From Escherichia phage pO2, in sequence record OR228483.1: DNA of 39,037 nucleotides; one strand, 5' to 3'. The notes beneath the pieces are model-generated. The model was not told the DNA's origin. It saw only the letters and a list, made by a program, of their open reading frames with translations, and did no database searches. The position numbers and the translations under genes are program-made. Shown here one piece after another: positions 998 through 36,575 of this stretch. Each line of letters opens with the position of its first letter. The stretch's first letter is position 1.

Positions 998-1020
998 CTT
1001 CCCTATAGTGATAGTTAAGT
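998..1020 (-). promoter_or_regulatory. Phage RNA polymerase promoter (phiOR-like, after terminase gene)
   Basis: Minus-strand read ACTTAACTATCACTATAGGGAAG matches the 11-copy promoter family. Confidence 0.6.
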
Positions 1021-1114
1021 CTAAACTCCTTGTAAAACAGTAGGTTAGACTGGTAGTAACTATAGGTTACTAACTGCTTATTAATTCAGTTTTCGCCTAT
1101 AGTTATTCATTCAG

Positions 1115-2884
1115 CTAGTGGAACGTAACGTAGGACCCTAGCCCCAGCTCGTCGTCCGTATCGTGAGTTACCCGGACCCCATTGTCCCAGAACTCAGTGT
1201 GGATGGACTCGAAGCCTTTCCGTGGGTTCTCCATCTGTTCCTCCAGCCACTCCTCAGTGACTTCACGTTCGCCTTTGTTGGCATCCTTCGCCATAGACTC
1301 AACGAAGAACTGTACACCGATAGCCAGCGCATCAAGTCGGTCATCGTGTGCCAATGCTCCACGTTCACGAGAGATACGTGTCATCTGGTAGAAGAGAGAG
1401 TAGATAGGATTACGAACACCATCCTTATCAGAGGCAGACTGGTAATCTTGGACGATAGCAGCAGCGTTAACGATAAGTCGGTGAGACCCCATGATAGGCT
1501 CCAGAACGTCACAGATGCGGAGTTCCTTCTGACCCTTACTCTTCACTTCAGTTACAGCAGCAGGATGAATACGGGAAGCTACAGGCTTGAATAGCTCAAG
1601 GTACATACCATCACCGAAGTTACCCTCAATGACGTATTCGTTGACCTTCCACTTACGACCAATCTTAGCCAAGGCTTCCAGCGTAGAGTCTTCATAGCCA
1701 CCTCGCATACCGCCAACTTCCATAGCGAAGATGTAGCCGTTTAGCTGGTACAGTACCGCATAACCAGTTTCATCCTTACCACGACCACTAGGGTCAATGA
1801 CTAGAATCTTCTGGGTGTACGAACTGAAGGCAGAACCTACAGTCTGATACGTGTGGTATGAGTCACCCATGAGTCCAACGTTAGGAACGTCCTCACGCTT
1901 GTTCTGAGGGTTAGGAAGCCATTGGTATACCATTGGGCTAGACGATGGGTCCAAGTCGGCTACGATAAGGTCACGGAGCTTCAGAGGGTACTTCTCAGCA
2001 TCGCTCAGGTTAGGGTTAAGCATGAACTGTAGAGCGAAGCCAGCTTTACCATAGGACAGCTCACGTTCCTTCAGGTCCGTATCATCAAATCGTACTTCAT
2101 CGGTCGGACGCCAGTAGAAGGACTCAGGGTCCTCTTCCAGCTCTGCCTGAAGCATCGGTGCCAGACGGTCGCCGTAAGACTGCCAGTCCTTCCTGTCGCG
2201 TGGATAACGAGCAGGCCAGATGGTAGTGGTGTATCCACGGCCTTCCAGCTCACGATACAAGGTCATCTCGTTCTGAGGAGTACCCAGATAGATGATTGTG
2301 CCTCCCGGCTTCAGGATAGCGTCGAACTCTTTCACAAGCTCTGACAGACGGTCTCGTGCAGCCTGAGTCGCTGAGTTGTTCGGAACCTCCACGTCATCGG
2401 CAATCAGGATGTCAGCACGACTACCAGTCAACTGACCAGTGATACCAACGGACTTAACCGAAGGTGAGTGGTCTGGCTTGGCTGGTCCAACGTCGAAGCT
2501 GATAACCGCATCTCGCTGCCCCTGCTTAGGTTTGAGTTCCTTAAGCTGAGGCATGAGGTCGATTATTCGCTTGATGAAGATGGAGTTAGCATCGGCTCGT
2601 TCCTTTGAGGCCGACACAATCATGAACTTCAAGTCCGGGTTATTCCATAACTTCCAGACCACGAAACCACAGGTCAGGAACGACTTTCCAATACCACGGA
2701 ATGCTTGAAGGATGAAGCGTCGATTATCTCCAGCCGCCAGCTTCTTACACATATCTATCTGGCAGCGTGTTGGAACAGGAAGGCTCAGAGCTTTCCATAG
2801 AACGAAGATGAAGAACACGAAGTCATCCCTCATCCTTTGGGTCATTTCTGCCTGTCTTTCAGCAGGTGTTTTCTTATTCGCCAC
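1115..2884 (-). CDS. gp19: Terminase large subunit (DNA maturase B)
   Basis: 589 aa; strong similarity to T7 gp19 ([31 protein letters not shown]); GTG start at 2884 preceded by AAGGAGG. Confidence 0.95.
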
Positions 2885-3308
2885 GCAACCTCCTTATGGT
2901 TTCCTGTAGAGCTTTCTCCTTAAGGTCAGCTTCTTGCGTTATTCGGATAAGACTTTTAGAAGTTTCTGGGTGTAGTTCGACTCTACCATTAGGGAAGCAT
3001 CGACTGTAATCTGGCTCGCTGAGACCTGAGGTCTTGACTTTGACGAGCAGCCGCTTGTTATCGCGGTTAAGGTCATTAATAATCCTATCAGTAGAGCCTT
3101 CCAGCGAGGACATCTTGTCCTGCCACTCCGCTGAGACTTCATCGACTCGTGCTTGGATAGCAGTTCGTTGACTCTCTCGTGCCTCAAGTTTCGTGATGTA
3201 TTCTTCATTTACTTTAGCCTCCCACTTATTGTTAGCGGTGTGGTAGCCACCAGCAAACATCACTGCTGCAAGTAGCCACGGAGCCGCTCTCTTTAAAAAT
3301 TCGAGCAT
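2874..3308 (-). CDS. rz: Rz-like i-spanin
   Basis: 144 aa, N-terminal transmembrane segment then coiled-coil-like region; position after small terminase as T7 gene 18.5; GGGAGG before ATG. Confidence 0.8.
2939..3142 (-). CDS. rz1: Rz1-like o-spanin lipoprotein embedded in rz in another frame
   Basis: Internal ATG at 3142 gives [34 protein letters not shown]: signal peptide plus lipobox-like TSGC; fully nested in rz. Confidence 0.5.
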   Translation of the reverse strand: MKSQRSGRTRCPRWKALLIGLLMTLTAITSGCSSKSRPQVSASQITVDASLMVESNYTQKLLKVLSE

Positions 3309-3367
3309 AGTTGCCCTCCCGGTTTATCAGATTTCACGTAGAGTCGCCTCCACTAGTTAGTGTTAAC

Positions 3368-3405
3368 CATAAAGGCCACTACATACAGTAATGACCTTGA
3401 GTCTA
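3368..3405 (-). promoter_or_regulatory. Conserved hairpin element (candidate RNase III processing site, R18.5-like), copy 1 of 3
   Basis: Shares CATAAAGGCCAC...TGACCTTGAGTCTA with copies at 26053 and 33439; stem pairs with G-U wobbles only in the minus-strand RNA. Confidence 0.45.
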
Positions 3406-3409
3406 ACAC

Positions 3410-3673
3410 TTATTGAACACCATACCCGGTGTCATTATCCTCAGTCGCTGAAAGCACCTTATCGTACTCTGCGTTCAGGGCCTCCATATCAGCCAGCGTC
3501 TTCTCGTCCACGGACACCTTGCTTAACACAAAGTTGTGACGAGCAAGCAGCTTCTCAATGGCGTTGTAAAGCTGGGGTGAACGCTTAGTGTCATCCCGCA
3601 GGTCTTGCAGCATGAGTCGAGCACGTTCAGTATCTAGCATTAAGAGGAACTTCTCTAAGTCCATCTGCGTCAT
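3410..3673 (-). CDS. gp18: Terminase small subunit (DNA maturase A)
   Basis: 87 aa, T7 gp18-like size and position; AAAGGAGG before ATG; start overlaps holin stop (ATGA). Confidence 0.85.
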   Translation of the reverse strand: MTQMDLEKFLLMLDTERARLMLQDLRDDTKRSPQLYNAIEKLLARHNFVLSKVSVDEKTLADMEALNAEYDKVLSATEDNDTGYGVQ

Positions 3674-3864
3674 GTTTTACCACCTCCTTTAATCGTTTTG
3701 TAGACTAGCACACCAATCTGGACAACGGTGTACGCGATAGCTGCAACGTAGAACCATTCGTTTAGTGTAAGTCCGAAGAAGAACCGACTGGCACCATCAG
3801 CCGCAGCGGTCCCGACGATAGGAGAGGCTTTAAGGACCTCATTCTTGAAGTCTAACTCAATCAT
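3670..3864 (-). CDS. gp17.5: Class II holin
   Basis: 64 aa; FFFGLTLNEWFYVAAIAYTVVQIG closely matches T7 gp17.5; GGAGG before ATG. Confidence 0.85.
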   Translation of the reverse strand: MIELDFKNEVLKASPIVGTAAADGASRFFFGLTLNEWFYVAAIAYTVVQIGVLVYKTIKGGGKT

Positions 3865-4022
3865 AAAACCTCCATTGTTAAACGGGTCGTCCTTGACCCA
3901 AAGTTGTTACCCTACGTTGGTTAGCGTGTAGTTAGCCTCTACCTCCACAACCTTCTAACATCTACACCCCACTCCTCACCCTATTCATGGATAACCACCT
4001 CAGCGAATCCATGCGTACATTT

Positions 4023-6053
4023 CTAGCGTCGGATGGCCTGTACCATCAAGTCACCAAGAAGAGTAACACTACCACCTGCACTTAAGTTCTTAATGTACAC
4101 ATTACATAAATTCTCCCCTATTGGCTTGAGAATAATTGAACATGACTTAACATCAAAGGTAGCACCATACACAAGCACATCCCCCTTAGTTGGCTTGTAG
4201 TCACCAGTGAGGGTAATATTACCGGCATTCAGGTCAGCACCTGGTTCAAGCGCAGTGTTAACTGCAAGAGTACCTTTGGCTACAACTCCGTTGTTGCTAC
4301 ACCATCCGACCGTGACTGTTGGAACAAAGACTGTGTTGTCATACTCAATCAAACTGTTACCTAGTGCAGCCAGTGACGCCCCACCCGTAGCACCAGTCCA
4401 CAACTTCAATCTAGTAGTTCCAAGCTTAACTCTAGCATCCCCAGAAGACAGGACTGGGTACATGAATACAGCAGTAGACGTCAGGTCTTCCCCGAAGAAG
4501 ATACCATCAACAGTAACGCGAGAACTTTCATGTGCTCGTAAGAAGTAAGCCTCCCCAGAACTAGCCAGAACTTTGTGGGAATGTAGTGCATATCCGTTAA
4601 GTGTTACTGTTGAGTCCCCATGAATATATATAGAGGCATGTCCATTATGATGAATCTCACAGTTCTCGCTGTACATGCCATTTATTACCATACCTTTACA
4701 GTTGTTAATATCAAAAGCCTGTAGACCTTGTATATCATTACAGCCGTCCATTGCACAATTGTTCATAGTCATGTTGTACACGTTTGCAAAATTGAACGCC
4801 TGATAACAATTAAGTGCGTAGCATGTATCCATTAGGACTGTAGTACCAATATGCTTACGGAAACCTTCCCAGCAATTAATCGCCAATACGTTACGCATGG
4901 TATACTGAAAAGCCCCTGTCACGTCATGAATACCAAAGTACGCACCACGTACTATGATGTTCTCAATGATAAATTGTGAAGGCCATGCTGTCTGCGATGC
5001 ATCACCAATATCAATACCTTTGCGACCACCATAGTTGTCTGGCTTGTTCTCACCATAATCAATGAATAAACCGCCTAAGTATCCACCCATGGAGTATCCA
5101 GAGTTAACGTCATACTTAAAAGCTGCTTCATTGTGAGAGATTGCTAGGATTGTACCAAGACTTGGTGATGGAGATATTCCCCCACCTTTAATAACTTGGT
5201 TCTTAAAGTACAAAGTCTCTTTAATGATGTATATACCAACGGGGATATATAGATTCTTTCCTGTTGCTAGTGCTGCCTTGAAAGCCTCTGTATCATCCGC
5301 AGAACCATCACCTTTAGCACCCCATCCGCGAACATCACCCTCATCTCGCCAGCGTGCCATCTGTAATTCTGGGTAGAGTATTGCCCCTTCCGGGTTTGAA
5401 ATCTGACTTCTTAAAGCAGCATCACCAACACTAACCCACGCACCTAATCCAATCCCACCGGAAGTTTCAGGAGTTGAACCAGCAGGAACGTTCTTTGGAA
5501 GCGTACCATCCCAGCGGTAATAATCACCATCCTCTTCCCATAGCAGGACCTCGCTCCATGTTGTAACGTTGTAGCCTTTCTCGAAGGAGCGACGGGTAAT
5601 ATAACCAATTAGACCAGCCTCCCTGATACTCTCAGCGATTCGTCGTGCTTCGTCCTCGCTATCCTTAGCGTTGCCAGCAGAGCTACCAGCAGCATCGGCA
5701 TATTCCTTCGCTAAGTCAACCGTTTGGTCTCTACCTTCTTCTGCAATATGGATAGCCTGAAGCTCTGAATTGGTCAGGTCACTAGCTGTCAACACTGAGC
5801 CATTCCTGAAGTCTACCACTAAGTCAGTTCCAGTCTGACGGTGAATACGAACGATGTCGAAACCTGATTGGTCAACCAACATCTCAATCATCGTTGGATT
5901 AAGGAATCGGTAATCTCGACCAACTTCCAGTACACGGTTCAGGGTAAGGTTAGAGCTATTCACCAGCGTAACAACAACAAACGTTCTGGCTAGGTAGTCG
6001 AACTCAATCCTGTACTGAGTGTTTCCTGAAGGGAATTGTGTAATCGTGGACAT
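4023..6053 (-). CDS. gp17: Tail fiber / tailspike: T7 gp17-like N-terminal adaptor domain fused to a parallel beta-helix (pectate-lyase-type) domain, probable polysaccharide depolymerase
   Basis: N-terminal ~120 aa resemble T7 gp17 (FDYLARTFVVVTL, DYRF); downstream GWGAKGDGSADDTEAFKAAL motif and repeated N/G/C-rich beta-helix-like segments; AAAGGAGG before ATG. Confidence 0.85.
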   Translation of the reverse strand: MSTITQFPSGNTQYRIEFDYLARTFVVVTLVNSSNLTLNRVLEVGRDYRFLNPTMIEMLVDQSGFDIVRIHRQTGTDLVVDFRNGSVLTASDLTNSELQAIHIAEEGRDQTVDLAKEYADAAGSSAGNAKDSEDEARRIAESIREAGLIGYITRRSFEKGYNVTTWSEVLLWEEDGDYYRWDGTLPKNVPAGSTPETSGGIGLGAWVSVGDAALRSQISNPEGAILYPELQMARWRDEGDVRGWGAKGDGSADDTEAFKAALATGKNLYIPVGIYIIKETLYFKNQVIKGGGISPSPSLGTILAISHNEAAFKYDVNSGYSMGGYLGGLFIDYGENKPDNYGGRKGIDIGDASQTAWPSQFIIENIIVRGAYFGIHDVTGAFQYTMRNVLAINCWEGFRKHIGTTVLMDTCYALNCYQAFNFANVYNMTMNNCAMDGCNDIQGLQAFDINNCKGMVINGMYSENCEIHHNGHASIYIHGDSTVTLNGYALHSHKVLASSGEAYFLRAHESSRVTVDGIFFGEDLTSTAVFMYPVLSSGDARVKLGTTRLKLWTGATGGASLAALGNSLIEYDNTVFVPTVTVGWCSNNGVVAKGTLAVNTALEPGADLNAGNITLTGDYKPTKGDVLVYGATFDVKSCSIILKPIGENLCNVYIKNLSAGGSVTLLGDLMVQAIRR

Positions 6054-6099: not shown

Positions 6100-6122
6100 G
6101 TTTCCTATAGTGATAGTTTAGT
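6100..6122 (-). promoter_or_regulatory. Phage RNA polymerase promoter (phi17-like)
   Basis: + strand CCTATAGTGATAGTTTAG; overlaps gp16 stop codon. Confidence 0.65.
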
Positions 6123-9100
6123 CCTTGATGTGGATACCTTGCTCCTCAAACATTCCAAGCAACAGCTTCTGGGTAATGGGGTCGTTCGGAACCAGTTCAC
6201 GGAACGTATTATACATCCCGGTCATGTAGTCACGCTCGTTGACACGAGTATCAGCCTTGAGGTAGCCAGCCAAGTTATAAGCAGAAACGCCAACGTTAGC
6301 AGCATATCCGAAAGCTGGAACCTGCTCCAAGAAGTTACCAACAACATTCATCACAGGGTCACTTGTAGCTGCACCAAACGTGATGGCACGTTCAGGCTTC
6401 TCTGTAGGCGAACGAGGTAGGATAGACGAACGGAGCATCTTAGTGTCCTCATACCCAGCGATGCCACCTAGAATGTTAGCTACCCCAAGTGGTCCACCCA
6501 GATGTGAACTACGGGACAGGGCCGCATAGGCAATCATCGTTGGGTCCAGAGCTTGCTTGAGATAATCTCGGTCTCGACCGTCCTGCATAGCGTAAGCCTT
6601 GACGTGCGCCTGAGCCATGTAGTAGATACCAGCCAGACCCATAGACATCACAGTAGACAGTGCAGCGTCCATCGCTCGGTTGTTCTTCGTGGCGTTATAG
6701 AATGTTCGCATGGTTCGACCATTGATGGACTTGATGACGAAGTTCTTAAACTGAAGGACAGTCTTAGCGAGAGGACCATAAGCCTTGGCGTCCATGTTGG
6801 ACAGCTTATGAGGACGGAGTAACGTTTCGTCAGCGATGGTATCACCCATACGCCATAGGTCCATAGCCCTTGGGTCCTGACTGAACGCCTTCTTATCCTT
6901 GATGGTGTACTTCCCGTCTGGACCACGAGTCACTGACTCACGGATGAGGGACTTAATGCCCTTCCACTGCTCGTCAGAGATACCAGCGGTCTTAAGCCAG
7001 CGGTCATCGAACTTACGCTTACTACCAGTCAGGCTATGCTCCACGATGTCAGACAGGAAGCCTTGACGTCCAGCATCTAACAGGTAGTTGGTCGTACCGT
7101 TGAGGACTTTAGTGAACGGAGAGCGTACTGCAAGTTCACCAGTGTAATACTTGACAGTTCCCAGAGCTGTAGCTGCCCCGCGACCTAGGTCACTGTAAGA
7201 CCGCAGACGGTCAATGACATCCTGTTTAGACGGACGGATTGAGTCATCCAGTTCCTTACCGAAGATAACATTGTGCAGGTCCTTAATCTCTGAGGCCCCA
7301 ACCTTCTTGTTACGGAAGGCTAGGTCACGGAAAATTGGGACTCCATGCAGCATTGCACGAACGTTGCCACGAGCCAGCATACCACCAATCTCCGTTAAGT
7401 TCTGAACACCCATGTAGGCATTCTTAGCGAAGAACGATAGGTCTGTCATTGTGCGCATCACGGTAGCGAAGGCTGCATCATCAGCACCATCACGTCGAGC
7501 ACGACCAGTGAGAATCTTCAGGGTGTCACGTAAGGTAGATACTTCACCTTTCAACTTACCGTCATCCCCAGCCTTGTTCATCATGGTCTCAACCAAGTCC
7601 TTCATGTCCTTCGTGGTCTTTCCTGTACCAGCCATGATAGCAATGTCACCATTGACTCGACGGTTGTAGGCCGGGACAATCTTGTCCATGTCCCACTCAC
7701 GCAGGTTGTTGACACTGAAGGTCTGACCGTTAGGTAGGACGATTGACATATCGCTATCGAACAGGTTACGAGCCTCAAGGAAGCTGTTGTTCTCCAGACC
7801 CACCAGACCATTGATGTTCTCTTCCATTACGGATGAACGCTCGAACTGCTCGGTGTGAGAGATACCATAAGCCTTATCGTTGGCGTACTTATCGACCGCA
7901 GCCGCAAGTCCTTCTGGAGTCAACGTAGGGTCAGCCTCTAAGAGTGCCTCGTCCACACGTTTCTTGACCTCAGGTCGAGACGCATAGCTGGTCAACCATG
8001 ACTTCTTGATGGCCTCCTGTAGTGCCTCTGGACTCCCAAGCTCCTTGATGTACAGCTCCTTCATCTGGTTGCTATACACATGCGGGACGTAGGTTCCCTT
8101 GAAGCGGCTACCCGGAAAGATAGACTGAGCGTCTGGACGACCAAACATCGCCGGGTTCTCCATCATCTCACGCTTGGCGTCAAACTGGTTCTTCAGCAGG
8201 TCATATACTTTCAGTTCTCCCGGAGTCAGTTCAGCCTTCAGGTTCCCACTTCCGTCTTCAATAGCCATAGACACACGCTGGTAGATGTCCTGACGGAATG
8301 CGCCAGAGTCTCGCCAGAATGCTGTCTGGAAGTATGGGTCCTTGAGCGCCTCAGTAACCGCGTCGTCGATGTCGTTGTAGAACCGATGGTCCACAGCACG
8401 AAGTCTCTCAAATACGTCTGACGCAGTGGTCCCGATTTTACCTGAGGCCCCTGACTGCATACCAGTTGGTGAACGCACTAAGTCAGCAGCGACTCCACGA
8501 ATCTCAGGGTTCTCTGACCGAAGCAGCTTCAGGCCAATCTCAGTAAGCCCACCAAGGTTCACACCAGCAGCGGCACGTTCAGGCTCAATCACTTCATCAA
8601 AGACTTGACGTGTCTTAGGGTTCAGAGGGTTCTCACCAATCAGGATTGAACCATCTTCCAGTCGTACACTACCCGGCTCGTTCGGAACGTCAGCGAACTT
8701 AACGCCTTGATGACTAAAGGTCTGCTCACCTTCCTGAATAGGGAGACGAGACAGGTCCTGACCATCAACGTTACGAGCGGTCTCACGAGCTTCCAGACGT
8801 GTAGCTGGGCCAGCAAACTCATTAGTGTTGCGACCTAAGGCTCTGCCTAACCCATCAGCGATAGCAGTCATACCACCACCGAAGAGAGCACCACCAAGGA
8901 TAGCTTCAGCCACATGAGCATCACCACCAGCCACTGAGGTACGGGCCATCTCGGACACACCAGCCAGTGCTCCAGATTGAGCAGCCACGGTGAACATCTT
9001 GTTGACCAGCTTACCGCCTTTACCAACCTGTCCAGCGATAGGAACGTATGTCAGAGGGTCTACACCAGCGCCAATCACACCAGCAGCTAACTGAGCACCA

Positions 9101-12303: not shown

Positions 12304-12891
12304 TTAGCTATGACCTGTAGGTGTGCCTTTAGCAGCCCTAATTGGTGCAGAACCGCCAGAGCTGGATGACCCAGACATTGATTCACCAGCAGCGTAACCT
12401 TGCATCCCGGCGTTAGCAACATTAAGTGCATGAGCCAGTGGGCTGGTCTTGATGATTTTACCTTGACCACGGATAGCAGACTTTGTGTTCTCAATGTTGG
12501 CGATACGGTTCCCGAAGATAGCCGCATAGTCGCGGTTGTAACTTTCGGTAATCCCTGCTCGCTCCTTGACTGTATCTCCTTCGACCTGACGTTCAATCCT
12601 GTCCATAGAGTTACCTTCCAGACCTGACTCAGCCACTGCAGCTCGGACCATCCCCTGATTGCGGATACCGTTTAGAGTGGTCTCTGTCAGTTCAGCCATC
12701 TGCTGCTCCTTCAGGTCTCGCTCCTGCATCTTCAGGTTGGCGTCAGAGTAGTTCATCTGCTTAACCATTTCCTGAGCCTGTCGGTTCTGAGCGTCAATTG
12801 CTGCACCTTCTGCCTTGGCCTGTTGGGATGCGGACATAGTGGCCCCGGCTACAGCCATGATTCCTAGACCGATACTTACGGGTTCACACAT
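12304..12891 (-). CDS. gp14: Internal virion protein B
   Basis: 195 aa; resembles T7 gp14 (LEGNSMDRIERQVEG, YNRDYAAIF); TAAGGAGG before ATG. Confidence 0.85.
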   Translation of the reverse strand: MCEPVSIGLGIMAVAGATMSASQQAKAEGAAIDAQNRQAQEMVKQMNYSDANLKMQERDLKEQQMAELTETTLNGIRNQGMVRAAVAESGLEGNSMDRIERQVEGDTVKERAGITESYNRDYAAIFGNRIANIENTKSAIRGQGKIIKTSPLAHALNVANAGMQGYAAGESMSGSSSSGGSAPIRAAKGTPTGHS

Positions 12892-13365: not shown

Positions 13366-13415
13366 AAGGGCCTATAGTCCCTATAGTGATAGTTAAGGTA
13401 AATCTATAGGCCCTT
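13366..13415 (-). promoter_or_regulatory. Perfect 12-bp inverted repeat (AAGGGCCTATAG / CTATAGGCCCTT) enclosing the phi13 promoter; candidate R13-like processing hairpin
   Basis: Arms at 13366..13377 and 13404..13415 read directly; promoter lies in the loop. Confidence 0.45.
13376..13398 (-). promoter_or_regulatory. Phage RNA polymerase promoter (phi13-like)
   Basis: + strand CCCTATAGTGATAGTTAAGG. Confidence 0.65.
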
Positions 13416-13422: not shown

Positions 13423-15780
13423 TTAGACTGAACGAGCTTTCTTAGCGTATGATGCCTCCCAGCCACACCCAACGATGGACACTGGGGTAGGATAGTCGGA
13501 CTCTAAGGTTAGACTCGTGGTTAATGCGTTACCATTCATAGCGAATCGATACTGCCCGTCACCAATGTTTGTAGTACCGATGGTTTGCTGACCAAGGGTG
13601 TACCCGTTGAAGGTATTCACGAACTCCCGCTCACCGTTTCTGACAATGAGTCTCAGAGCGCCAGTGTCCTTGTAGTTGACCCAAGCCCGACGAAGCTGTA
13701 GACGACCAGTGTCTTCAGACTGAGTGCCACTATCATCTTCAATCTTAATCAGGAACCGTGAGAACTTGTAGGACATCAGATAGGGCCGTCCGATGAACAC
13801 TGTACGTCCTGACCAATCGCCGTTGAGGGTAATCACAGTAGAGATACTGGACAAGTCCCCAAGGTCCACATAAGCACCCTGACTGTCAATCAGATAGTAC
13901 CGACCGGGAGACGGAGCGTTGCCGCCATAAGCAGCACCAATGTCAACCGTAGTCTTATAGGTGTCAGCATTATATGAGCCAATTGGAATTACCATAGACA
14001 CCTTGGAGTCAATGTGTAGTCTATATGGCTCTGACGGGAAGTCAGTTGCCTCCTTGATGAACTTAAGGTGCTCAATGTCTACCCCTCCTTGGTGCTGACG
14101 AACAATGAACATGGTAGAGCCAATAGAAGCAGACGCCAGAATCTTATCATCTTTAGGGAACTCCCAGTGTGACCAAGAGGCTTGAAGCTGTACTCCGTCC
14201 TTAAACAAGAACTTGTAGATGTAGATTCGGTTGTATGCACCTGTAGAGTTGACGCAGATGTAGTTCTCAGTACCTGTACCTTGAATATCAAACACCCCGT
14301 TAGGGATGTAGGACAGTACGTGACCAGTTGTATCATCTGCATCCTTCACATCAGATACATCAGCTACAGCGAAGTATCGCTTAATACTGGTGAATGACCC
14401 ACGAGGAGCTGAGAAGAAGACTGAGCGTCCTACAGCGAACGGTCTGGCATTATCACCTAGGGCAAACTCTGAGCCTACATCAAGCTGGATAGACTTCGAG
14501 GTAAGGACCCCAGAGCTTGTCATCACGAACTGAACCTCATCCGACCAAAGTAGTAGCTGCTCGCTAAACGGAACGGCATACTTAAGGATTGAGATTCGAG
14601 GGTGACTTACAGCTACGTCAATAGGGTCATCATCACTCAGTGTCGCCACACTCTTAGGGAAGAACGCAAAGTAGCTGGCTGAACGGCTCATGATTACGTT
14701 CTCACCCGACAAGAACCCTAGCCTGTTCCTGTAGAAGAACACATCATTAATCGCAGCATCCACGAAGCTAGGCATAGGGTTTGTGTCATCGTTACCAGCA
14801 CCACGCTTGGACCAATCCAGAGTCTTGAACTCAAAGGAGCCGTCAGATTGTCTTACCAGAGCGTGTGGCATTGTGGTGTTATCGAACCCAGTGACAACTC
14901 CCGGCTCCACTGTCTCCTTCCACGTCTTAGTGTTGGAGTCATACATCACGTAGTATTCATCGGCGCTACTGTTTGTTTCACCTTGAATCTTAATGATATA
15001 CCCATTAGGAGCGGCAAGAGGTAGTTTAGAGATTGTCTGCACAGTGTCTAGGACTGGGCTTATTAGCTGGTTAGCGTAGCCATCCTCCGTCTCCACTGAG
15101 TTAATGTCGGTCCCTGAAGGAGCTGTGATTAGCAGGAAGCCAGACCCAAGGTCAAACGTGAAGTCAGGATAGGACTGAACAAGAAGGTCTCTCAGAGCTG
15201 CACCAATGGCCTGAGCGTCCACCTTAGGTGGGTCATTCTCGGCATCATTACCTGCTGGTAGCTTATGCGAGACCTTAACGCCACCGTTGATTCCCACCTT
15301 AAGGGTTCGACCATACTGTCCACCACGCAGGTTAATTAAAGCTCGTGCTTTGCGGTTATAACCAGAGTGTGACTTCTCGCTTCCACCTTTGACGACAACC
15401 TTACGGTTAACGACGAACGTATAGTCTGCCACGGTAACGACACGGATGTCATCTCGTGGGTTGGAGGACTTAACGTAGTCTACCGCACCTGACACTGAGT
15501 ATTGATTACCACTCAAGTCAACTACCTGAATGTTGGACCCATTGAACACGATGTAATACTGCTCATGCTCATCACGGTTAATCAGGTGGAACTTAGGGTT
15601 GCTCCCAACGTCGATGTTAAGACGTCGCTTGAAGACTGTAGGTGGACGCTTCTGGAGGCCATCACTCTCTGATGACCAGCAGTTAACCTGTGACTCGCCT
15701 TGGTCTGAGAACCTCAGTATATCAGGCTGTTGGCTAATGCCACCCTTAAGATTTTTTATGCTTTGCGTAATAAGCGGCAT
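13423..15780 (-). CDS. gp12: Tail tubular protein B
   Basis: 785 aa; N-terminus SQSIKNLKGGISQQPDILR near-identical to T7 gp12. Confidence 0.95.
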   Translation of the reverse strand: MPLITQSIKNLKGGISQQPDILRFSDQGESQVNCWSSESDGLQKRPPTVFKRRLNIDVGSNPKFHLINRDEHEQYYIVFNGSNIQVVDLSGNQYSVSGAVDYVKSSNPRDDIRVVTVADYTFVVNRKVVVKGGSEKSHSGYNRKARALINLRGGQYGRTLKVGINGGVKVSHKLPAGNDAENDPPKVDAQAIGAALRDLLVQSYPDFTFDLGSGFLLITAPSGTDINSVETEDGYANQLISPVLDTVQTISKLPLAAPNGYIIKIQGETNSSADEYYVMYDSNTKTWKETVEPGVVTGFDNTTMPHALVRQSDGSFEFKTLDWSKRGAGNDDTNPMPSFVDAAINDVFFYRNRLGFLSGENVIMSRSASYFAFFPKSVATLSDDDPIDVAVSHPRISILKYAVPFSEQLLLWSDEVQFVMTSSGVLTSKSIQLDVGSEFALGDNARPFAVGRSVFFSAPRGSFTSIKRYFAVADVSDVKDADDTTGHVLSYIPNGVFDIQGTGTENYICVNSTGAYNRIYIYKFLFKDGVQLQASWSHWEFPKDDKILASASIGSTMFIVRQHQGGVDIEHLKFIKEATDFPSEPYRLHIDSKVSMVIPIGSYNADTYKTTVDIGAAYGGNAPSPGRYYLIDSQGAYVDLGDLSSISTVITLNGDWSGRTVFIGRPYLMSYKFSRFLIKIEDDSGTQSEDTGRLQLRRAWVNYKDTGALRLIVRNGEREFVNTFNGYTLGQQTIGTTNIGDGQYRFAMNGNALTTSLTLESDYPTPVSIVGCGWEASYAKKARSV

Positions 15781-16346
15781 TAGTCTCTCCCAATGTCGGA
15801 CATCATGTTGTAGCGACCAGTATCCATCTCGTATTCCATGACCTGCTGATAGAGTTCTGCTTCCTGCTCACGAAGGTACAGTTCAGACTCTGGGCTACCG
15901 AAGAACTTAGCGTTGAACTCACGGCTAGCTTTAGTGACGATGTAGTCCCTGAAGACCACAGGCATCTCTGAGAATGGCTTCATCTCCACAAGCTCTACCG
16001 TGATAGGGTCGGTGAAAGTGGTCGACTGAGTGGACAGGTCGTACAGGTATCCACCCATGTTGCTGTAGTAGCTGGTGGCCCCAGCGGTCATTACACGAAG
16101 GTATGACGGCAAGAATCGAATCCTATTGTCTTGGACATCAGGTGTCAGGACAGCAGCTTCGTTGATGTTAAAGTTCCAGCCTTTAGCTTGGACCTGACGA
16201 TTGACACGATGCAGGATACGTTGGGCGTTCGAGACGTCAGCATTCCCCTCGTCAAGCTGTAGGACTGCTGGTTCACCGATAGCAGCTAACATATCGTTGA
16301 TAGCGTCTAAGTCATCGTTAGCATTCAGTGGAATGTATTGAGCCAT
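15780..16346 (-). CDS. gp11: Tail tubular protein A
   Basis: T7 gp11-like (AIGEPAV, YIVTKASREFN, MEYEMD); start placed at ATG 16346 with GGAGG rather than the ORF-track start 16376, which lacks a ribosome-binding site. Confidence 0.9.
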   Translation of the reverse strand: MAQYIPLNANDDLDAINDMLAAIGEPAVLQLDEGNADVSNAQRILHRVNRQVQAKGWNFNINEAAVLTPDVQDNRIRFLPSYLRVMTAGATSYYSNMGGYLYDLSTQSTTFTDPITVELVEMKPFSEMPVVFRDYIVTKASREFNAKFFGSPESELYLREQEAELYQQVMEYEMDTGRYNMMSDIGRD

Positions 16347-16463: not shown

Positions 16464-16501
16464 AAAAAAAACCCCTCAAGCACCCGAAGGCACCCAAGGG
16501 G
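16464..16501 (-). terminator. Tphi-like intrinsic terminator after the capsid gene
   Basis: Minus-strand RNA CCCCUUGGGUGCC-UUCG-GGUGCUUGAGGGG then U8; stem uses G-U wobbles so it is strand specific. Confidence 0.8.
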
Positions 16502-16507
16502 TTTCAA

Positions 16508-16798
16508 TTAGTTTGTGAAAGATACGTTGAAGGAACGCACAGGCGAACCGTCATACCCAACAATCACCAGACCTTCCGCGCCAGAGGTGGCCTTGAAGTA
16601 GAGACTGTTGGTTCTACGGGAGTAGCTAACACCATCAGGCGTAGTCACCTCAAGCAGCGACCAATCGGTCACATCTGAAAGCTCAGGTAAGTCAACCTTC
16701 AGGCTGGTCCCCACCGTAGAACTGTACGTCTCTAAGGTAGGACCCTCTGTAGAGAGGGCCTTAAAGGTCGTTAGCCCGCTGACGCTGCTGTGAAAACC
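16508..16798 (-). CDS. gp10B: Minor capsid protein 10B C-terminal extension, reached by a programmed -1 ribosomal frameshift near the end of gene 10A
   Basis: -1 frame open from shifty GGUUUUC (16792..16798) across the 10A stop to 16508; ORF-track 68-aa ORF 16508..16714 is the distal part of this frame. Confidence 0.55.
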   Translation of the reverse strand, partial: GFHSSVSGLTTFKALSTEGPTLETYSSTVGTSLKVDLPELSDVTDWSLLEVTTPDGVSYSRRTNSLYFKATSGAEGLVIVGYDGSPVRSFNVSFTN

Positions 16799-17922: not shown

Positions 17923-17945
17923 TCTCCCTATAGTGATAGTTTAGT
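17923..17945 (-). promoter_or_regulatory. Phage RNA polymerase promoter (phi10-like)
   Basis: Minus-strand read ACTAAACTATCACTATAGGGAGA; -10..+6 identical to the T7 consensus, -17..-8 differs. Confidence 0.7.
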
Positions 17946-18918: not shown

Positions 18919-18941
18919 TGTTCCTATAGTGATAGTTTAGG
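18919..18941 (-). promoter_or_regulatory. Phage RNA polymerase promoter (phi9-like)
   Basis: + strand TTCCTATAGTGATAGTTTAGG; overlaps portal stop codon. Confidence 0.65.
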
Positions 18942-21678: not shown

Positions 21679-21739
21679 CTTGAATCTCCTCTTTAAGTTA
21701 AGACTAAAGTCTATCTTATAGTCATATCTTAGGTCCTAA

Positions 21740-21762
21740 AGTCCCTATAGTGATAGTTTAGT
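21740..21762 (-). promoter_or_regulatory. Phage RNA polymerase promoter (phi6.5-like)
   Basis: + strand GTCCCTATAGTGATAGTTTAGTG. Confidence 0.65.
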
Positions 21763-23684: not shown

Positions 23685-23842
23685 TAGTCTTCTCCTTCTT
23701 CGTTATGTTCTTTCAGAATTTCACGAATGTCTCGACTGCACTGTCCACTGAGGTTTGGACTATAACGAGACTCCTCGTGTCCACACCACCAAGCTGACCG
23801 CATCAGGTCTTTGACCTCCTGCTCACTATAAGTTTTAGCCAT
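23684..23842 (-). CDS. Small protein, 52 aa (gp5.3-like position)
   Basis: ATG at 23842 overlaps DNA polymerase stop (TAATG); MAKTYSEQEVKDLMRSAWWCGHEESRYSPN...; stop overlaps gp5.5 start. Confidence 0.35.
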   Translation of the reverse strand: MAKTYSEQEVKDLMRSAWWCGHEESRYSPNLSGQCSRDIREILKEHNEEGED

Positions 23843-26028
23843 TAGTGACACTCCTTCCACGTTGGTCCAATCTTACCTTCGGTATCAAGGACACATTTAA
23901 AGTTATAGAACTCACCCACCTTACGCATAGCAAGTTGAGCAATCTTGACGACTTCTTCGGCAATCTCCTGAGTACGGCACGCAATCTGTAGCTCATCGTG
24001 AACCCAAGCCATGTACGCGAAGTCTCCTTCCCAGCCATGAACATACCCGGCCTCTTCGAGCATACGTTCAGTCTCAACAATCCAGTGCTTACAGACTACC
24101 GCACCATCACCTTGAAGTAAGGCGTTCAGTGCTGAGTGTGGCGACCGGATGTGGATACGGCGACCATCGAGTCCACGCAACCAACGGCGTTTCCACTTGA
24201 CGATGTTCTCTCCGTCCACCCACTTAGAGTCTGAGATTAACGTATTACTCACAGCTTCCCTGAGGTCTTTGATGGCTGGTGTACCCTCAATGAATTTCTT
24301 CATGAGAGCTGAACCTTCCTTCTTACCACCGCCGACTATCAGTCCAATCTTAGCGGCCCCTGCACCATACAGGAACGCATAGATGAACGTCTTAGCGTTG
24401 TTACGGAAAGCATCATGGTCGTGGTTCGATTTATCGCGTGGGACGTTAGGTGCTAACCCAGCGTTGACTGCGTTGGCCCAGTGGATGTCACCTTCGACCA
24501 CAGTCTTCGCATAGGCACCACCATCAAACGGAGCTGCTCGGTTCCCCAGACAACGAAGCTCAAGACCTGAGGCATCCACACCCACTTGAATCCAAGGGTC
24601 TGGTAATTGTCTTCCATCCGGGAACGTCAGCTTGTTCCACGCTGCACCGAAAGCACCACGGCAAATCTCACCGTATGGAGCACCGTTAGCCGGGACCTGA
24701 GCCATGTTTGGTGTACTATGAGTCGCACGTCCGGTTACTGCCCCGCATGGGTTGATTGAACCGTGCATACGTCCGTCTGGGCCTACAAGTTTCAACCATG
24801 CGTTCTTACCTTCAGCCGCCTGACCGATGCGCTTCTGGACTACCAGATACTCACGGACCAGCTCTACGCAAGCCTGAGCCTCTGCGTCTGGTAGCTTAAC
24901 GTGTTCTAACGTCTCGTCATCGACTACAGGTTTCCCAGTGTCAGTGAAGTCCACAGGCTCCCAACCACGCTCCATCAAGACTTTCGCTAAGTGGTCTCCG
25001 CTTCCCGGATTAAACTCAACGTAAGTGATTGGCGTGAACGGTGCTCCTTCCATCGTGTCTCGTGAGTCGAACTCGCAAGGCTCCAGACCTAAGCGTTGAG
25101 CTTTGTTCTTCGGCTTCTTGAATACTGACCCGACCTTAGGATACACGACTCGCGGATACTTCGGAAGGTCCTTGCCTGTCCGTGGGTGCTTGAAGAACTC
25201 CTTGCCTCCCTTTGGTGCATACCAGCTACCGAAAGTCGAACGCAGCTTGTCCAACAACTCTGCACGTTTGACGGTGAGTTCACGATATAAGCCTTCGACC
25301 ATCTCGGTGTTCATCGGATAGCCGTTACGCTCCATCTTCGCACAGGTCCACGCAGCATCATGTTCCAGACGCAACGCATAAATCTGGTCGAAAGCGAACT
25401 GTTCAGACTGGAAGTAATACTTGTCAGTCAGGAACTTCTTGAACAACGCCAGTGTGACCACAACGTCTTGAACGTTATAGTCTAGCATCTCCTGAGATGG
25501 GAACAACCATTCGTCCCCAGCCTTATATTCGATACCTTCAGCCTTGCACTTGGCAACGTAATCGTGTTTGTACTCACCTTTCATCTCACCGAGACGATAG
25601 CCCCAAGCCTCAAGAGACTGGCGTCCCATCATCTTAGGTGGCAGACGACCAGCTTTCACTGCGCCCATGTCTGAGAACTTAATGTTTGGATACATCAAGC
25701 GTCCCAGCACCAAGGTATCAATCATCTTGTGTTTCGGGAAGTTAAAGCGTTTCCCAAAGTACAGACGCTTTAGCTTGTCAATAGCCGGGACGTCATAGTT
25801 GATACCGTTGTGGAATACCAGCATACCATCAGGTGATGCGGCAATCTCTTCCACCTTCTGTACATACTCTTTGAAGCCACCGACGATACCGACCATCGGA
25901 GCTACCCCATACTTAAGGGTCTCATTCGACTCGGCGTTAATCAGGACCCCACAGTGAAACTGGGAGACTGTATCAAGGAGACCGTTGGTCTCTATGTCGG
26001 AACCCCAGATACTCTTAAGGTCAAACAT
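23842..26028 (-). CDS. gp5: DNA polymerase (family A) with thioredoxin-binding-domain-like insertion
   Basis: Strong identity to T7 gp5 (FHCGV, WGYRLGEMKGEYK, FGSWY, PKYPR, FAYMAWVHDE); start at ATG 26028 with GGAGG; ORF-track start 26064 is an upstream GTG. Confidence 0.96.
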   Translation of the reverse strand: MFDLKSIWGSDIETNGLLDTVSQFHCGVLINAESNETLKYGVAPMVGIVGGFKEYVQKVEEIAASPDGMLVFHNGINYDVPAIDKLKRLYFGKRFNFPKHKMIDTLVLGRLMYPNIKFSDMGAVKAGRLPPKMMGRQSLEAWGYRLGEMKGEYKHDYVAKCKAEGIEYKAGDEWLFPSQEMLDYNVQDVVVTLALFKKFLTDKYYFQSEQFAFDQIYALRLEHDAAWTCAKMERNGYPMNTEMVEGLYRELTVKRAELLDKLRSTFGSWYAPKGGKEFFKHPRTGKDLPKYPRVVYPKVGSVFKKPKNKAQRLGLEPCEFDSRDTMEGAPFTPITYVEFNPGSGDHLAKVLMERGWEPVDFTDTGKPVVDDETLEHVKLPDAEAQACVELVREYLVVQKRIGQAAEGKNAWLKLVGPDGRMHGSINPCGAVTGRATHSTPNMAQVPANGAPYGEICRGAFGAAWNKLTFPDGRQLPDPWIQVGVDASGLELRCLGNRAAPFDGGAYAKTVVEGDIHWANAVNAGLAPNVPRDKSNHDHDAFRNNAKTFIYAFLYGAGAAKIGLIVGGGKKEGSALMKKFIEGTPAIKDLREAVSNTLISDSKWVDGENIVKWKRRWLRGLDGRRIHIRSPHSALNALLQGDGAVVCKHWIVETERMLEEAGYVHGWEGDFAYMAWVHDELQIACRTQEIAEEVVKIAQLAMRKVGEFYNFKCVLDTEGKIGPTWKECH

Positions 26029-26052
26029 GGTTAATCCTCCGTTTAGTCTAAT

Positions 26053-26088
26053 CATAAAGGCCACTCGATGTGAATGACCTTGAGTCTA
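26053..26088 (-). promoter_or_regulatory. Conserved hairpin element (candidate RNase III site, R4.7-like), copy 2 of 3
   Basis: CATAAAGGCCAC...TGACCTTGAGTCTA just upstream of the DNA polymerase gene. Confidence 0.45.
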
Positions 26089-28018: not shown

Positions 28019-28041
28019 CATCCCTAAGGTGATAGTTTAGG
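28019..28041 (-). promoter_or_regulatory. Variant phage promoter (phi4-like), CACCTTAGGG in place of CACTATAGGG
   Basis: + strand TCCCTAAGGTGATAGTTTAGG upstream of gene 4. Confidence 0.5.
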
Positions 28042-30768: not shown

Positions 30769-30791
30769 CTGTCCTACAGTGATAGTTAGGT
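30769..30791 (-). promoter_or_regulatory. Variant phage promoter (phi2.5-like), CACTGTAGGA
   Basis: + strand GTCCTACAGTGATAGTTAGG upstream of gp2.5; overlaps gp2 stop. Confidence 0.5.
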
Positions 30792-31749: not shown

Positions 31750-31772
31750 TTGTCCTATAGTGATAGCTTAGG
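31750..31772 (-). promoter_or_regulatory. Phage RNA polymerase promoter (phi1.5-like)
   Basis: + strand TGTCCTATAGTGATAGCTTAGGG. Confidence 0.6.
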
Positions 31773-33221: not shown

Positions 33222-33224
33222 GTC

Positions 33225-33438: not shown

Positions 33439-33476
33439 CATGAAGGCCACGACTTTGAGTCATGACCTTGAGTCTA
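33439..33476 (-). promoter_or_regulatory. Conserved hairpin element (candidate RNase III site, R1.1-like), copy 3 of 3
   Basis: CATGAAGGCCAC...TGACCTTGAGTCTA; minus-strand RNA forms a 12-bp stem AAGGUCAUGACU / AGUCGUGGCCUU with G-U wobbles. Confidence 0.5.
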
Positions 33477-33497
33477 ATCCTATAGTGATAGTTTAGG
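33475..33497 (-). promoter_or_regulatory. Phage RNA polymerase promoter (phi1.1-like; T7 replication-origin region equivalent)
   Basis: + strand CCTATAGTGATAGTTTAGGTTA. Confidence 0.65.
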
Positions 33498-33571
33498 TTA
33501 ACCTCTTCTGCGTGGGATTAAAGTGAATACTGCGAGTGCTCCCAGCCACAAGGCCAGTAACTGTAGGTCTG

Positions 33572-33787: not shown

Positions 33788-33801
33788 AACTCTCTCTCCT
33801 G

Positions 33802-36483
33802 TTAAGCGAATGCAAAGTCTGAAGACAAGATGTCCTCGATATTCAGTTTACCTTTCTTCGGAAGCTCAGGCAACTTGTCGCGCTGACTCTCGTGAAGCTG
33901 GTATTCGAACTGCTCGTAGAAGTCAAGCAGCACATCGTTGTCGCGGTAGGTCTCTACCATCGTCTCACGGACACCACGGAACAGATACTCAGCGTCAGCC
34001 GGGATGGTCCCGAAGCTATCGTGAATCACTGCGAATGACATCACGCCATACTTGCGGTGCGTGTGGACTACAGTCTTGCGGAGGTGGCTACCATCTTGTG
34101 AGTGGACGAAGTTCGGGCTAATGCCTGACTCCTGCTTGTGCTTGTCCAGCTCTTTCTTCGTACCTCTGTTGACGGTAGGTTGAAGGTTGAATGACCCTAA
34201 GAACATCAGGTTCAGACGAGTGGTATCTTTCTTGCGGTATTCCTGCCAGACCGGGAAACCATCAGGTGTGACCCAGTGTACCGGAAGGCATGGCTTCAGG
34301 ATTTCGCCAGTCTTCTTGTCCTTCACTTCAGCAGCCAGCAGCTTGGCAGCGCCTTGAAGCCACTTCATCGCGTCAACCGCAGCAACTACTGTCACACTCA
34401 CAGCTTCCCAAATCATCTTTGCCATGAAGCGAGACGCTTGGCTTGGCTCGGTGAACATTGCTCCCTTACCGGAGTCAATCGCTGGCATCACGGTGTCTTC
34501 GAACACTTGGTCGGCGAACCCATACTCTTTCGACCCGTAGGCCAGAGTCATGACCGAGCGCTTAGTGACCGAGCGAGACATACCGAATTGCAGCCACTGA
34601 CGGGCCAGCTCTCGTGTCCCCAGCTTGATACGTTCGGTAATCTCACCAGTTTTCTTATCCTCGTGAGTGACCATCTCGTTGTCAGTACCGTTAATCAGCA
34701 GGACTTTAAGCTCCTCCTCAATGCGGTCAGACACAATGCGGTAGATGTCTTGCACCTTACCGGATGGCGTCAGGTTTACTGCATGTCCACCGATGTGGTC
34801 ACGAAGCATCGCGCTGAAGTGCTGAATACCAGAGCATGACCCATCGAACGCTATCGGCAGCGAGCAGGAGTAAGACAGGCCGTGGTGCATTACGCCAGCA
34901 TACTCGAAGCAGAACGCGAGGAAACAGAACGGAGAGTCTAACTTGCCCCACCACTCAATACTATCCATCGGTGCCTTAGCAGCAGCCATGATGTTTTCGT
35001 GGTTGTCTTCCACCCACTTGATGCGCTCATCGAAGGTGACTTTATCGACACCCGCACAGTTTGCACCGTGGACCTTCAGCCATTTGAAACCGTCAGCACC
35101 AATAGGCTTGCCGACTGCCAGAGTCAGGAGACCCTTCTGCATGTCGTTACCCTGAGGGTTGAACATCGGGACAGCGTAGACACGACCTCGCCAATCCATG
35201 TTGTACGGGAACCAGATGGCCTTGAACTGAGAGAACTTGTTTGCTTGGTTAACGATAAAGCTCAGTGATAATCTGCGTGACTGTCTGGCCTTCTCGCGGC
35301 GATAGATACCAGCAGCAGCCTTCTTCCATGCCTTGAGTTCCTCCTCGGTCTCACCAGCATAGTCCTCAGGCTTCAGCGGTTCCATCTGAGGGATGTCATC
35401 AATAGGCGTGTTGTTCAGCTTCTCGACCATGTTCACCACGTCCAGAACCTTCTTGTTAACTTTCCAAGGTGTATTCTGAATGATGTTCACAGCGTCATAG
35501 ACTTCAGGCATGTATACGTCTTCATAACGTGCTACCGCAGACTTAGACCCTAAGCGAATCAATGGTAACGGTCTGCGACCTTTGGCCCAGTACCCACCAC
35601 CTACGACACCAGTCCACGGCTTAGGTGGAACGACGCAAGGCTGGTAGACTGGAGCGATACCCGCAAGGCTGAATCCTCGTTGTGCCATCTTCTTGACCCA
35701 GAAGTCTGACAGGTGGACCATCTCTACGTCAGCCGCTGCATTACCAGCACCGTACCGCTTAAGCTCGACCAGTTGTGTTGACTGGATGACAATCTCGAGC
35801 ATCTTGATGCCAACGTGGACAGCCTCTGTAGGACTCCAAGTCCCCCATGCATCTTCCAGTTGGCCTTGCTCCAGCATGGACGCCTCGACCGCTTGCATGT
35901 AGGCTTTCTTGTAGGATGCCCCAGCTCGCTTGTTCAGGTTCTCAGCTATCGCCTTCTTGAAGTGCTCCTTCTCTTTGTCACGGATGCGACCGAAGCGGAT
36001 TTCGTCCTCAAGTGTGCGACCTATCGCGGAGGCCATCGGTGTAATCGGTATCCCTTCAGGCTTGACCAGCTTGGAGAGTATGACCTTCAGTATGATAACC
36101 GCAGCGGACTCACAGGAGATGCGCATAGAGCGGTCCTTTACGGCCTTCTCTTCAGTGCTCAACATGGTGAACGCTACGCTAGGACGCGAGGTTGACAGCT
36201 TCCCGTCTGGGCCTTCATGCCACTCCTTGACGGCTTGCGCAATCTTAGGGACCAGAGTCTGCATCAAAGGCTTGGCGACCTGATTGTCTGCCAGTTCCCC
36301 GCGCTCAGTCTGTCGCTCAAGGTTCTTGATGAAACGTCGCTCGCCTTCTGTATATGCCTCATGCTCAAGCTGAAGCTGTTTGACTGCAAGGTCTTGCCCG
36401 TAGTGGTCAGCCAGCAGGTTAAACGGCTCAATGGCGTTCGACACATCAGAGAAGTCGTGTTTGTCAATAGAGATGACGCTCAT
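33802..36483 (-). CDS. gp1: Single-subunit DNA-directed RNA polymerase
   Basis: 893 aa; long identical blocks to T7/T3 RNA polymerase (PCVVPPKPWTG, FPYNMDWRGRVYA, AFDGSCSGIQHFSAM, HDSFGT, C-terminal FAFA). Confidence 0.98.
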   Translation of the reverse strand: MSVISIDKHDFSDVSNAIEPFNLLADHYGQDLAVKQLQLEHEAYTEGERRFIKNLERQTERGELADNQVAKPLMQTLVPKIAQAVKEWHEGPDGKLSTSRPSVAFTMLSTEEKAVKDRSMRISCESAAVIILKVILSKLVKPEGIPITPMASAIGRTLEDEIRFGRIRDKEKEHFKKAIAENLNKRAGASYKKAYMQAVEASMLEQGQLEDAWGTWSPTEAVHVGIKMLEIVIQSTQLVELKRYGAGNAAADVEMVHLSDFWVKKMAQRGFSLAGIAPVYQPCVVPPKPWTGVVGGGYWAKGRRPLPLIRLGSKSAVARYEDVYMPEVYDAVNIIQNTPWKVNKKVLDVVNMVEKLNNTPIDDIPQMEPLKPEDYAGETEEELKAWKKAAAGIYRREKARQSRRLSLSFIVNQANKFSQFKAIWFPYNMDWRGRVYAVPMFNPQGNDMQKGLLTLAVGKPIGADGFKWLKVHGANCAGVDKVTFDERIKWVEDNHENIMAAAKAPMDSIEWWGKLDSPFCFLAFCFEYAGVMHHGLSYSCSLPIAFDGSCSGIQHFSAMLRDHIGGHAVNLTPSGKVQDIYRIVSDRIEEELKVLLINGTDNEMVTHEDKKTGEITERIKLGTRELARQWLQFGMSRSVTKRSVMTLAYGSKEYGFADQVFEDTVMPAIDSGKGAMFTEPSQASRFMAKMIWEAVSVTVVAAVDAMKWLQGAAKLLAAEVKDKKTGEILKPCLPVHWVTPDGFPVWQEYRKKDTTRLNLMFLGSFNLQPTVNRGTKKELDKHKQESGISPNFVHSQDGSHLRKTVVHTHRKYGVMSFAVIHDSFGTIPADAEYLFRGVRETMVETYRDNDVLLDFYEQFEYQLHESQRDKLPELPKKGKLNIEDILSSDFAFA

Positions 36484-36503
36484 ACTTAAAGTCCTTGTTA
36501 TTA

Positions 36504-36544
36504 GTCTTTCACTTAGAGTCTCTTTGGTCTTTCACTTGGAGTCT
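36504..36544 (-). repeat. Two 18-bp direct repeats (GTCTTTCACTT[A/G]GAGTCT) in the RNA polymerase gene leader
   Basis: Units at 36504..36521 and 36527..36544, 17/18 identical. Confidence 0.6.
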
Positions 36545-36552
36545 TAGACCTT

Positions 36553-36575
36553 GAGTCCTATAGTGATAGTTTAGT
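36553..36575 (-). promoter_or_regulatory. Phage RNA polymerase promoter directly upstream of the RNA polymerase gene
   Basis: + strand GTCCTATAGTGATAGTTTAGTC, full match to the promoter family. Confidence 0.6.

Follow-up and report, generated by a model that had tools for sequence, protein, structure and literature searches.

Eleven repeats in the genome of Escherichia phage pO2 as predicted promoters of its own T7-family RNA polymerase

Phage T7 carries 17 promoters, and those of classes II and III (TAATACGACTCACTATAGGGAGA) are built on a 23-bp architecture. Close variants of this design are known from the genus Kayfunavirus, including phage K1F (NC_007456), phage Ro45lw and the Cronobacter phage GW1. 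Here we examine a family of eleven repeats with the same architecture in Escherichia phage pO2 (sequence record OR228483.1), whose 39,037 nucleotides, given 5' to 3' on one strand, are called the window throughout. A first-pass annotation of this DNA had reported eleven copies of a 23-bp phage promoter on the minus strand, and had suggested that they serve an RNA polymerase whose specificity differs from that of T7. We conclude that the repeats are almost certainly the cognate promoters of the phage's own T7-family RNA polymerase, the product of gene 1, and that the phage is a Kayfunavirus member. The promoter class itself is the already described K1F/Kayfunavirus class, and its recognition here is a routine annotation result.

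Much of what is known about the function of this class comes from engineered or purified polymerases. Temme et al. (2012) grafted the specificity loop of the K1F enzyme into T7 RNA polymerase and exchanged positions -12 to -7 of the T7 promoter for the consensus of the K1F subfamily; the chimera is reported to be strongly active on the predicted promoter and orthogonal to T7 and the others. A later study (Nucleic Acids Research [NAR] 2025, PMC11880802), citing Temme et al. (2012) in its Table 2, lists T7 polymerase with 754S/756N/761V together with a cognate promoter that has ACTAT at -12 to -8, and distinguishes nine specificity clusters, of which K1F is one. The residues and bases of that entry are exactly those found in the window. 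In addition, native K1F polymerase and the promoter PK1F serve synthetic biology as an orthogonal pair in Halomonas and Escherichia coli, where they have been used for expression and in a mutagenesis system. Purified Ro45lw polymerase transcribes from ACTTAACTATCACTATAGGGA with +1 assigned to the G by 5'-end sequencing, and its minimal promoter has been trimmed to -17 to +4 (J Biol Chem 2025, PMC12272871). Finally, a 2026 Kayfunavirus genome paper reported eight repeats of the form CTWAACTATCACTATAGG as promoters. The in vitro transcription experiment proposed in the first-pass annotation is thus in effect already done on close relatives.

The repeat family in the window is real and is complete at eleven copies. 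When the window was searched with the 23-mer given as the consensus in the first-pass annotation, exactly 11 minus-strand sites matched at up to 8 mismatches, apart from matches at the limit itself. The latter are only three (15924-15946 on the minus strand; 968-990 and 8724-8746 on the plus strand), and each scores at most 5 bits in the weight matrix described below. At up to 3 mismatches, five minus-strand sites were found where dinucleotide shuffles predict 0.00. A position weight matrix, a check that the annotation had suggested, was built from the 11 sites and applied to both strands of the window, with 20 shuffled genomes as the control. The 11 sites score 28.8 to 36.9 bits (22.5 to 35.6 by leave-one-out scoring) and are cleanly separated from the background, in which the runner-up position reaches 14.9 bits and the maximum in the shuffled genomes is 10.0. 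The number of copies, their strand and their places were therefore reported correctly. Further copies, such as an equivalent of T7 phiOL or a counterpart of the Ro45lw promoter that precedes the DNA polymerase gene, were sought in the window, and none was found above 15 bits.

To place the sites among the genes, we mapped the K1F proteins onto the window and combined the result with a listing of short open reading frames (ORFs). The repeats lie before genes 1, 1.1, 1.6, 2.5, 4, 6.5, 9, 10, 13 and 17, and one lies after gene 19. This is the gene context that had been given previously, except that the gene called 1.5 in the first-pass annotation is gene 1.6. All 11 copies are on the minus strand, which is the coding strand, either in intergenic spacers or within the final codons of the upstream gene, and the promoters that precede start codons leave untranslated leaders of 33 to 108 nt. 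Ten of the 11 positions correspond to the T7 promoters phi1.1, 1.5/1.6, 2.5, 3.8, 6.5, 9, 10, 13, 17 and OR. The two genomes differ in that T7 possesses phiOL but lacks a promoter immediately ahead of gene 1, whereas the window, with 11 promoters to the 17 of T7, has a gene-1 promoter and no phiOL.

The individual copies, all on the minus strand, are as follows. The first, phi1 (36553-36575, ACTAAACTATCACTATAGGACTC), has its +1 G at 36558, 75 nt before the start codon of the RNA polymerase, scores 35.1 bits and is syntenic with K1F 2474-2496. The phi1.1 copy (33475-33497, CCTAAACTATCACTATAGGATTA, 34.4 bits) has its +1 at 33480, 76 nt before a 59-amino-acid ORF (33404-33225) that resembles T7 gp1.1. 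Then follow phi1.6, called phi1.5 in the first-pass annotation (31750-31772, CCTAAGCTATCACTATAGGACAA, +1 at 31755, 33 nt before gene 1.6, 33.1 bits), and phi2.5, which overlaps the end of gene 2 and has the lowest score of all (30769-30791, ACCTAACTATCACTGTAGGACAG, +1 at 30774, 46 nt before gene 2.5, 28.8 bits). The phi4 copy (28019-28041, CCTAAACTATCACCTTAGGGATG, 30.4 bits) has its +1 at 28024, 56 nt before the primase/helicase gene. Toward the structural genes are phi6.5 (21740-21762, ACTAAACTATCACTATAGGGACT, +1 at 21745, 67 nt before gene 6.5, 36.0 bits) and phi9, which overlaps the end of gene 8 (18919-18941, CCTAAACTATCACTATAGGAACA, +1 at 18924, 93 nt before the scaffold gene, 36.9 bits). 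The phi10 copy (17923-17945, ACTAAACTATCACTATAGGGAGA, 35.6 bits) has its +1 at 17928, 108 nt before the major capsid gene. Two more are phi13 (13376-13398, CCTTAACTATCACTATAGGGACT, +1 at 13381, 35 nt before gene 13, 34.4 bits) and phi17, which overlaps the end of gene 16 (6100-6122, ACTAAACTATCACTATAGGAAAC, +1 at 6105, 52 nt before the tail spike gene, 36.7 bits). The last copy is the equivalent of T7 phiOR (998-1020, ACTTAACTATCACTATAGGGAAG, +1 at 1003, 35.6 bits); it lies past gene 19, which encodes the large terminase, faces the genome end and is syntenic with K1F 38852-38874 as well as with T7 phiOR.

One additional sequence near phi6.5 deserves mention. A degenerate promoter-like copy, CCTAAGATATGACTATAAGATAG, is present at 21711-21733 on the minus strand, 29 nt downstream of phi6.5, and scores 14.9 bits against the shuffle maximum of 10. 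A similar degenerate copy is found at the same offset from phi6.5 in Ro45lw (15.3 bits). This sequence may be what is left of a tandem promoter that has decayed, or it may belong to the leader of gene 6.5.

The per-column counts show which bases of the repeat are held constant. Positions -16, -13, -11 to -5, -2, -1, +1 and +2 are invariant in all 11 copies. By comparison, -17 is A or C, -14 is A in eight copies and T in three, and -12 is A in 10 of 11. Downstream, +3 is A in six copies and G in five, +4 is A in seven copies, and +5 and +6 are uninformative. Conservation is thus confined to CTAAACTATCACTATAGG, which spans -16 to +2 and holds about 31 bits in total. Positions -12 to -8 read ACTAT in 10 of the 11 copies, and the GCTAT of phi1.6 is likewise present in K1F and Ro45lw. 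The first-pass annotation had noted deviations at -4, -3 and -2 in two copies, and these are indeed a G at -3 in phi2.5, and a C at -4 together with a T at -3 in phi4. Every one of the 11 copies is built like a T7-group promoter, with a length of about 23 bp, TCACTATAG as its core and a G at the predicted +1.

Two details of the earlier description need correction. It had stated that positions -10 to +6 equal those of T7, which is off by two, because the block identical to TAATACGACTCACTATAGGGAGA runs from -8 to +2 (TCACTATAGG), with an A at -13 in addition. Likewise, the sequence that it offered as a consensus is in fact the phi10 copy at 17923, the sole copy with GGGAGA at +1 to +6, and +3 to +6 are unconserved.

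The shared core bears on a different reading of these repeats, in which there has been no real change in specificity. In this case the polymerase would also use T7 promoters, and the upstream differences would be neutral drift. The identity of -8 to +2 with T7 fits this reading, as do the retention of N748 and Q758 in the polymerase and the residual cross-activity among the Temme chimeras that is described by the NAR 2025 authors (PMC11880802). However, eight of the nine positions from -17 to -9 differ from T7, and all eight differences thus fall in the recognition region, where -16, -13 and -11 to -9 are invariant and -12 is A in all copies but one. Furthermore, when T7 promoters are scored with the matrix of the window, none exceeds 12 bits.

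The polymerase itself provides further evidence on this question. Gene 1 (33802-36483, minus strand) encodes a single-subunit RNA polymerase of 893 amino acids with matches to Pfam RNA_pol (E-value 4.8e-105) and RPOL_N (E-value 1.5e-14), and the catalytic residues D537, K631, Y639, H784 and D812 are conserved. The protein is 98.2% identical to the polymerase of K1F, 94.3% to that of Ro45lw and 64.7% to that of T7. Its specificity loop, RLNLMFLGSFNLQPTV, is shared with K1F and has N748, S754, N756, Q758 and V761 in T7 numbering; over the compared positions, the loops of the two enzymes are identical save for one conservative K-to-R change. The Ro45lw loop, RLNLLFLGSFNLQPTV, has one M-to-L change and the same key residues. 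Relative to T7, the loop carries Q754S, R756N and I761V, with N748 and Q758 kept. Residue R756 contacts bases in T7 and is N in the window, and the combination 754S/756N/761V is tabulated with ACTAT, not with the CGACT of T7, and is reported to be orthogonal.

By homology with the T7 polymerase-promoter complex, a recognition mechanism can be proposed. Through N748, N756 and Q758, together with S754 and V761, the specificity loop would read the ACTAT bases in the major groove, from about -12 to -8, and an N-terminal loop would read the A/T-rich segment from -17 to -13. The conserved segment TCACTATA would then be melted, and transcription would start at the G of ...TATAGG.

Related phages provided an independent comparison of loop and promoter. 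From viral contigs we compiled 80 loci that surround homologues of the polymerase, and compared loop residues 748, 756 and 758 with the dominant pentamer at -12 to -8 of the promoter-like sites that recur in each. Across these loci, the bases of the promoter covary with the residues of the loop. Residues NNQ are found with ACTAT (18 loci), NRQ with CGACT (T7 type), DRQ with ACCCT (T3 type, including the Kayfunavirus GW1 at syntenic sites), KNK with GGACA or GGGCA (K11 type) and KNF with GGTAG (18 loci). This covariation across clades, taken with the loop residues, the pairing with ACTAT and the orthogonal chimera, supports the different polymerase specificity that the first-pass annotation had proposed, and leaves drift without a change in specificity as a very improbable account.

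Two of the loci are of particular relevance to Kayfunavirus. Their polymerases are 88% identical to that of the window and carry D748 and R756, and the same loci have the T3-type sequence TTAAACCCTCACTATAGG at syntenic promoter positions. One of them is GW1, whose promoters stand at the same syntenic places as those of the window, including the one before gene 1. GW1 pairs ACCCT at -12 to -8 with D748/R756, whereas the window pairs ACTAT with N748/N756. Since both the loop and the promoter have changed in the GW1-type loci, the recognition bases and the loop switch together inside Kayfunavirus.

Comparisons with the nearest relatives indicate how closely the window follows the described class. 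All eleven sites recur in K1F, in unchanged order and with the same flanks, and many of the 23-mers are identical, including those of phi1.1 and phi10. The -3G variant of phi2.5 and the -4C/-3T variant of phi4 are shared as well. The copies of K1F and the window differ by a few single bases in the flanks (at -17, -14 and +3 to +6) and by the loss of one A from the A run of the phi2.5 copy. Elsewhere, the tail spike and the ligase differ between the two phages, and the DNA polymerase gene of K1F has an insertion.

Ro45lw has the eleven sites plus one more. Its twelfth copy, GCTTAACTATCACTGTAGGATAG (12445-12467, 25.8 bits), lies before its DNA polymerase gene and has no counterpart in the window or in K1F. 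The phi10 copy of Ro45lw is identical to that of the window, and the -3G variant of phi2.5 is present both in Ro45lw and in GW1. Seven of the sites are annotated as promoters in the Ro45lw record (MK301532), including phi1.1 (as 'predicted promoter'), phi1.6, phi6.5 and phi17, and a terminator is annotated in addition. The promoter tested for Ro45lw, ACTTAACTATCACTATAGGGACT, agrees with the phi13 copy of the window over positions -16 to +6 and with its phiOR copy over -17 to +4.

Repeats of this kind could in principle have another role: they might be RNA processing sites for RNase III, signals for replication or packaging, or a mobile repeat. An RNase III site is present in T7 in the region of the gene-1 leader, and the gene-1 copy in the window pairs partially with a segment of the leader downstream of it. 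Yet the fold of the gene-1 leader is no more stable than that of shuffled sequences (z = -0.63, with 50 of 200 shuffles as good). Moreover, the architecture and core are exactly those of T7-group promoters, every copy is on the coding strand just ahead of genes, and the same sequence drives in vitro transcription with a polymerase that is 94% identical. We therefore consider a function other than that of a promoter to be exceedingly unlikely.

Our conclusion that the eleven repeats are promoters of the phage's own polymerase rests on evidence of two kinds. The sites, their statistics, their synteny and the identity of the loop were computed here, and it is in close relatives that the start at the G and the orthogonality to T7 were shown. 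Several points weigh against this conclusion. First, the proteins in the published tests are a T7/K1F-loop chimera, native K1F polymerase in reporters and the Ro45lw enzyme, and the phage pO2 polymerase differs from that of K1F at 16 residues. Second, we found no transcript or 5'-end data for infection by phage pO2 or K1F in the accessible literature. Third, how active the individual sites are in phage pO2, and how strong relative to one another, is inferred, and this point matters most for phi1, phi2.5 and phi4.

The promoter before gene 1 raises a question of its own. Of the 18 relatives with an NNQ loop, 17 have a phi1-type site at -75 to -81, and the locus of the 18th ends inside gene 1. 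GW1-type loci have a site about 76 nt (76 to 78 nt) before gene 1 in a T3-like version of their own. Among the 80 loci, the gene-1 site is absent from those of the T7, K11 and KP32 types. Because the site was rewritten to the T3 type as the GW1-type polymerase changed its specificity, we argue that selection maintains it, and its conservation suggests a maintained positive-feedback arrangement. Located 75 nt ahead of gene 1, phi1 is expected to allow the enzyme to raise its own production. It is somewhat more likely than not, in our estimation, that gene 1 is a natural 'autogene', in which a little enzyme made by the host machinery would then amplify its own mRNA. This idea is not new in kind, as positive feedback through a phage promoter ahead of the polymerase gene has been put forward for Pseudomonas phage LUZ100, and the record of phage CR8 annotates a predicted promoter before gene 1. 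Our literature search for earlier accounts of promoters upstream of gene 1 returned the LUZ100 work alone, and it yielded no infection transcriptome that tests gene-1 feedback in Kayfunavirus.

It is also conceivable that ten of the copies work and that phi1 is silent or irrelevant, with no autoregulation. T7 does without a phage promoter at that place, and the gene-1 copy of Ro45lw has an A at -2 (CACTAAAGG) and was left unannotated by its depositors. In addition, Dubendorff and Studier are said to have noted in 1991 that a strong self-driving polymerase gene is hard to tolerate. In the window, however, the score of phi1 is level with those of the late promoters. The retention of the site among same-loop relatives, the presence at that position in GW1-type phages of a version that fits their own loop, and the annotation in CR8 also argue against a silent phi1, which we regard as unlikely.

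Other features of the gene-1 leader were considered separately. The leader (36484-36558, minus strand; 75 nt) contains the motif AAGTGAAAGAC twice and shows partial pairing with the promoter core. The possibility that the gene-1 copy contributes one half of a hairpin processed by RNase III in early read-through transcripts was rejected, given a fold at the level of shuffles. A host sigma-70 promoter overlapping the gene-1 copy was likewise discarded, because the 9-of-12 hexamer match at 36595-36568 is at chance level (4 found and 3.5 expected in the region).

A program of transcription can be proposed for the phage. Gene 1 and the early region would be transcribed by host polymerase, after which the phage enzyme would drive the middle genes through phi1.1, phi1.6, phi2.5 and phi4, which are more deviant and probably weaker promoters, and the late genes would be driven from phi6.5, phi9, phi10, phi13 and phi17. 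A Tphi-like terminator hairpin past gene 10 would close the phi10 transcription unit, with phiOR near the right end. This hairpin (16468-16505, minus strand) has 17 pairs followed by a T run. It lies downstream of the capsid gene, at the position of T7 Tphi and of the terminator annotated in Ro45lw, and resembles T7 Tphi in sequence (AACCCCTTGGG...CTTGAGGGGTTTTTTTT). A 68-amino-acid ORF (16508-16714) is located between the capsid gene and the terminator.

The window is a complete podophage genome in reverse-complemented orientation. It encodes an RNA polymerase of the T7 family, a family A DNA polymerase and, all of T7 type, a capsid protein, a tail fiber N-terminus and a terminase. Its nucleotide sequence is, for the most part, 94 to 98% identical to those of phages ZG49, YZ1, Vec13 and vB_EcoP_F. 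Because these close relatives are species of the genus Kayfunavirus (K1F-like), we assign phage pO2 to that genus. The window and K1F are collinear, but the window is circularly permuted by about 435 bp. No repeat common to both ends of the window was detectable, and therefore the direct terminal repeat is present only once.

Two genes depart from their K1F counterparts. The first approximately 262 residues of the product of gene 17 (4023-6053, minus strand) match the K1F endosialidase tail spike (93.9%), and the rest is a domain of the pectate-lyase or beta-helix type by Pfam. From this domain makeup, phage pO2 probably targets a surface polysaccharide different from the K1 capsule. Gene 5 (23842-26064, minus strand) encodes an uninterrupted DNA polymerase of 740 amino acids, whereas gene 5 of K1F is annotated as two joined pieces around an HNH endonuclease ORF. 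Approximately 600 bp of K1F (14932-15535) have no counterpart in the window.

For phage pO2 itself, the sites define its transcription units and confirm its K1F-type promoter and polymerase specificity, which carries small weight beyond annotation. For the genus, Kayfunavirus offers a clean natural example of a joint switch of loop and promoter, with K1F-type ACTAT and GW1-type ACCCT found at 88% polymerase identity. The conserved promoter ahead of the polymerase gene in this clade is a candidate for positive feedback by a phage RNA polymerase on its own synthesis.

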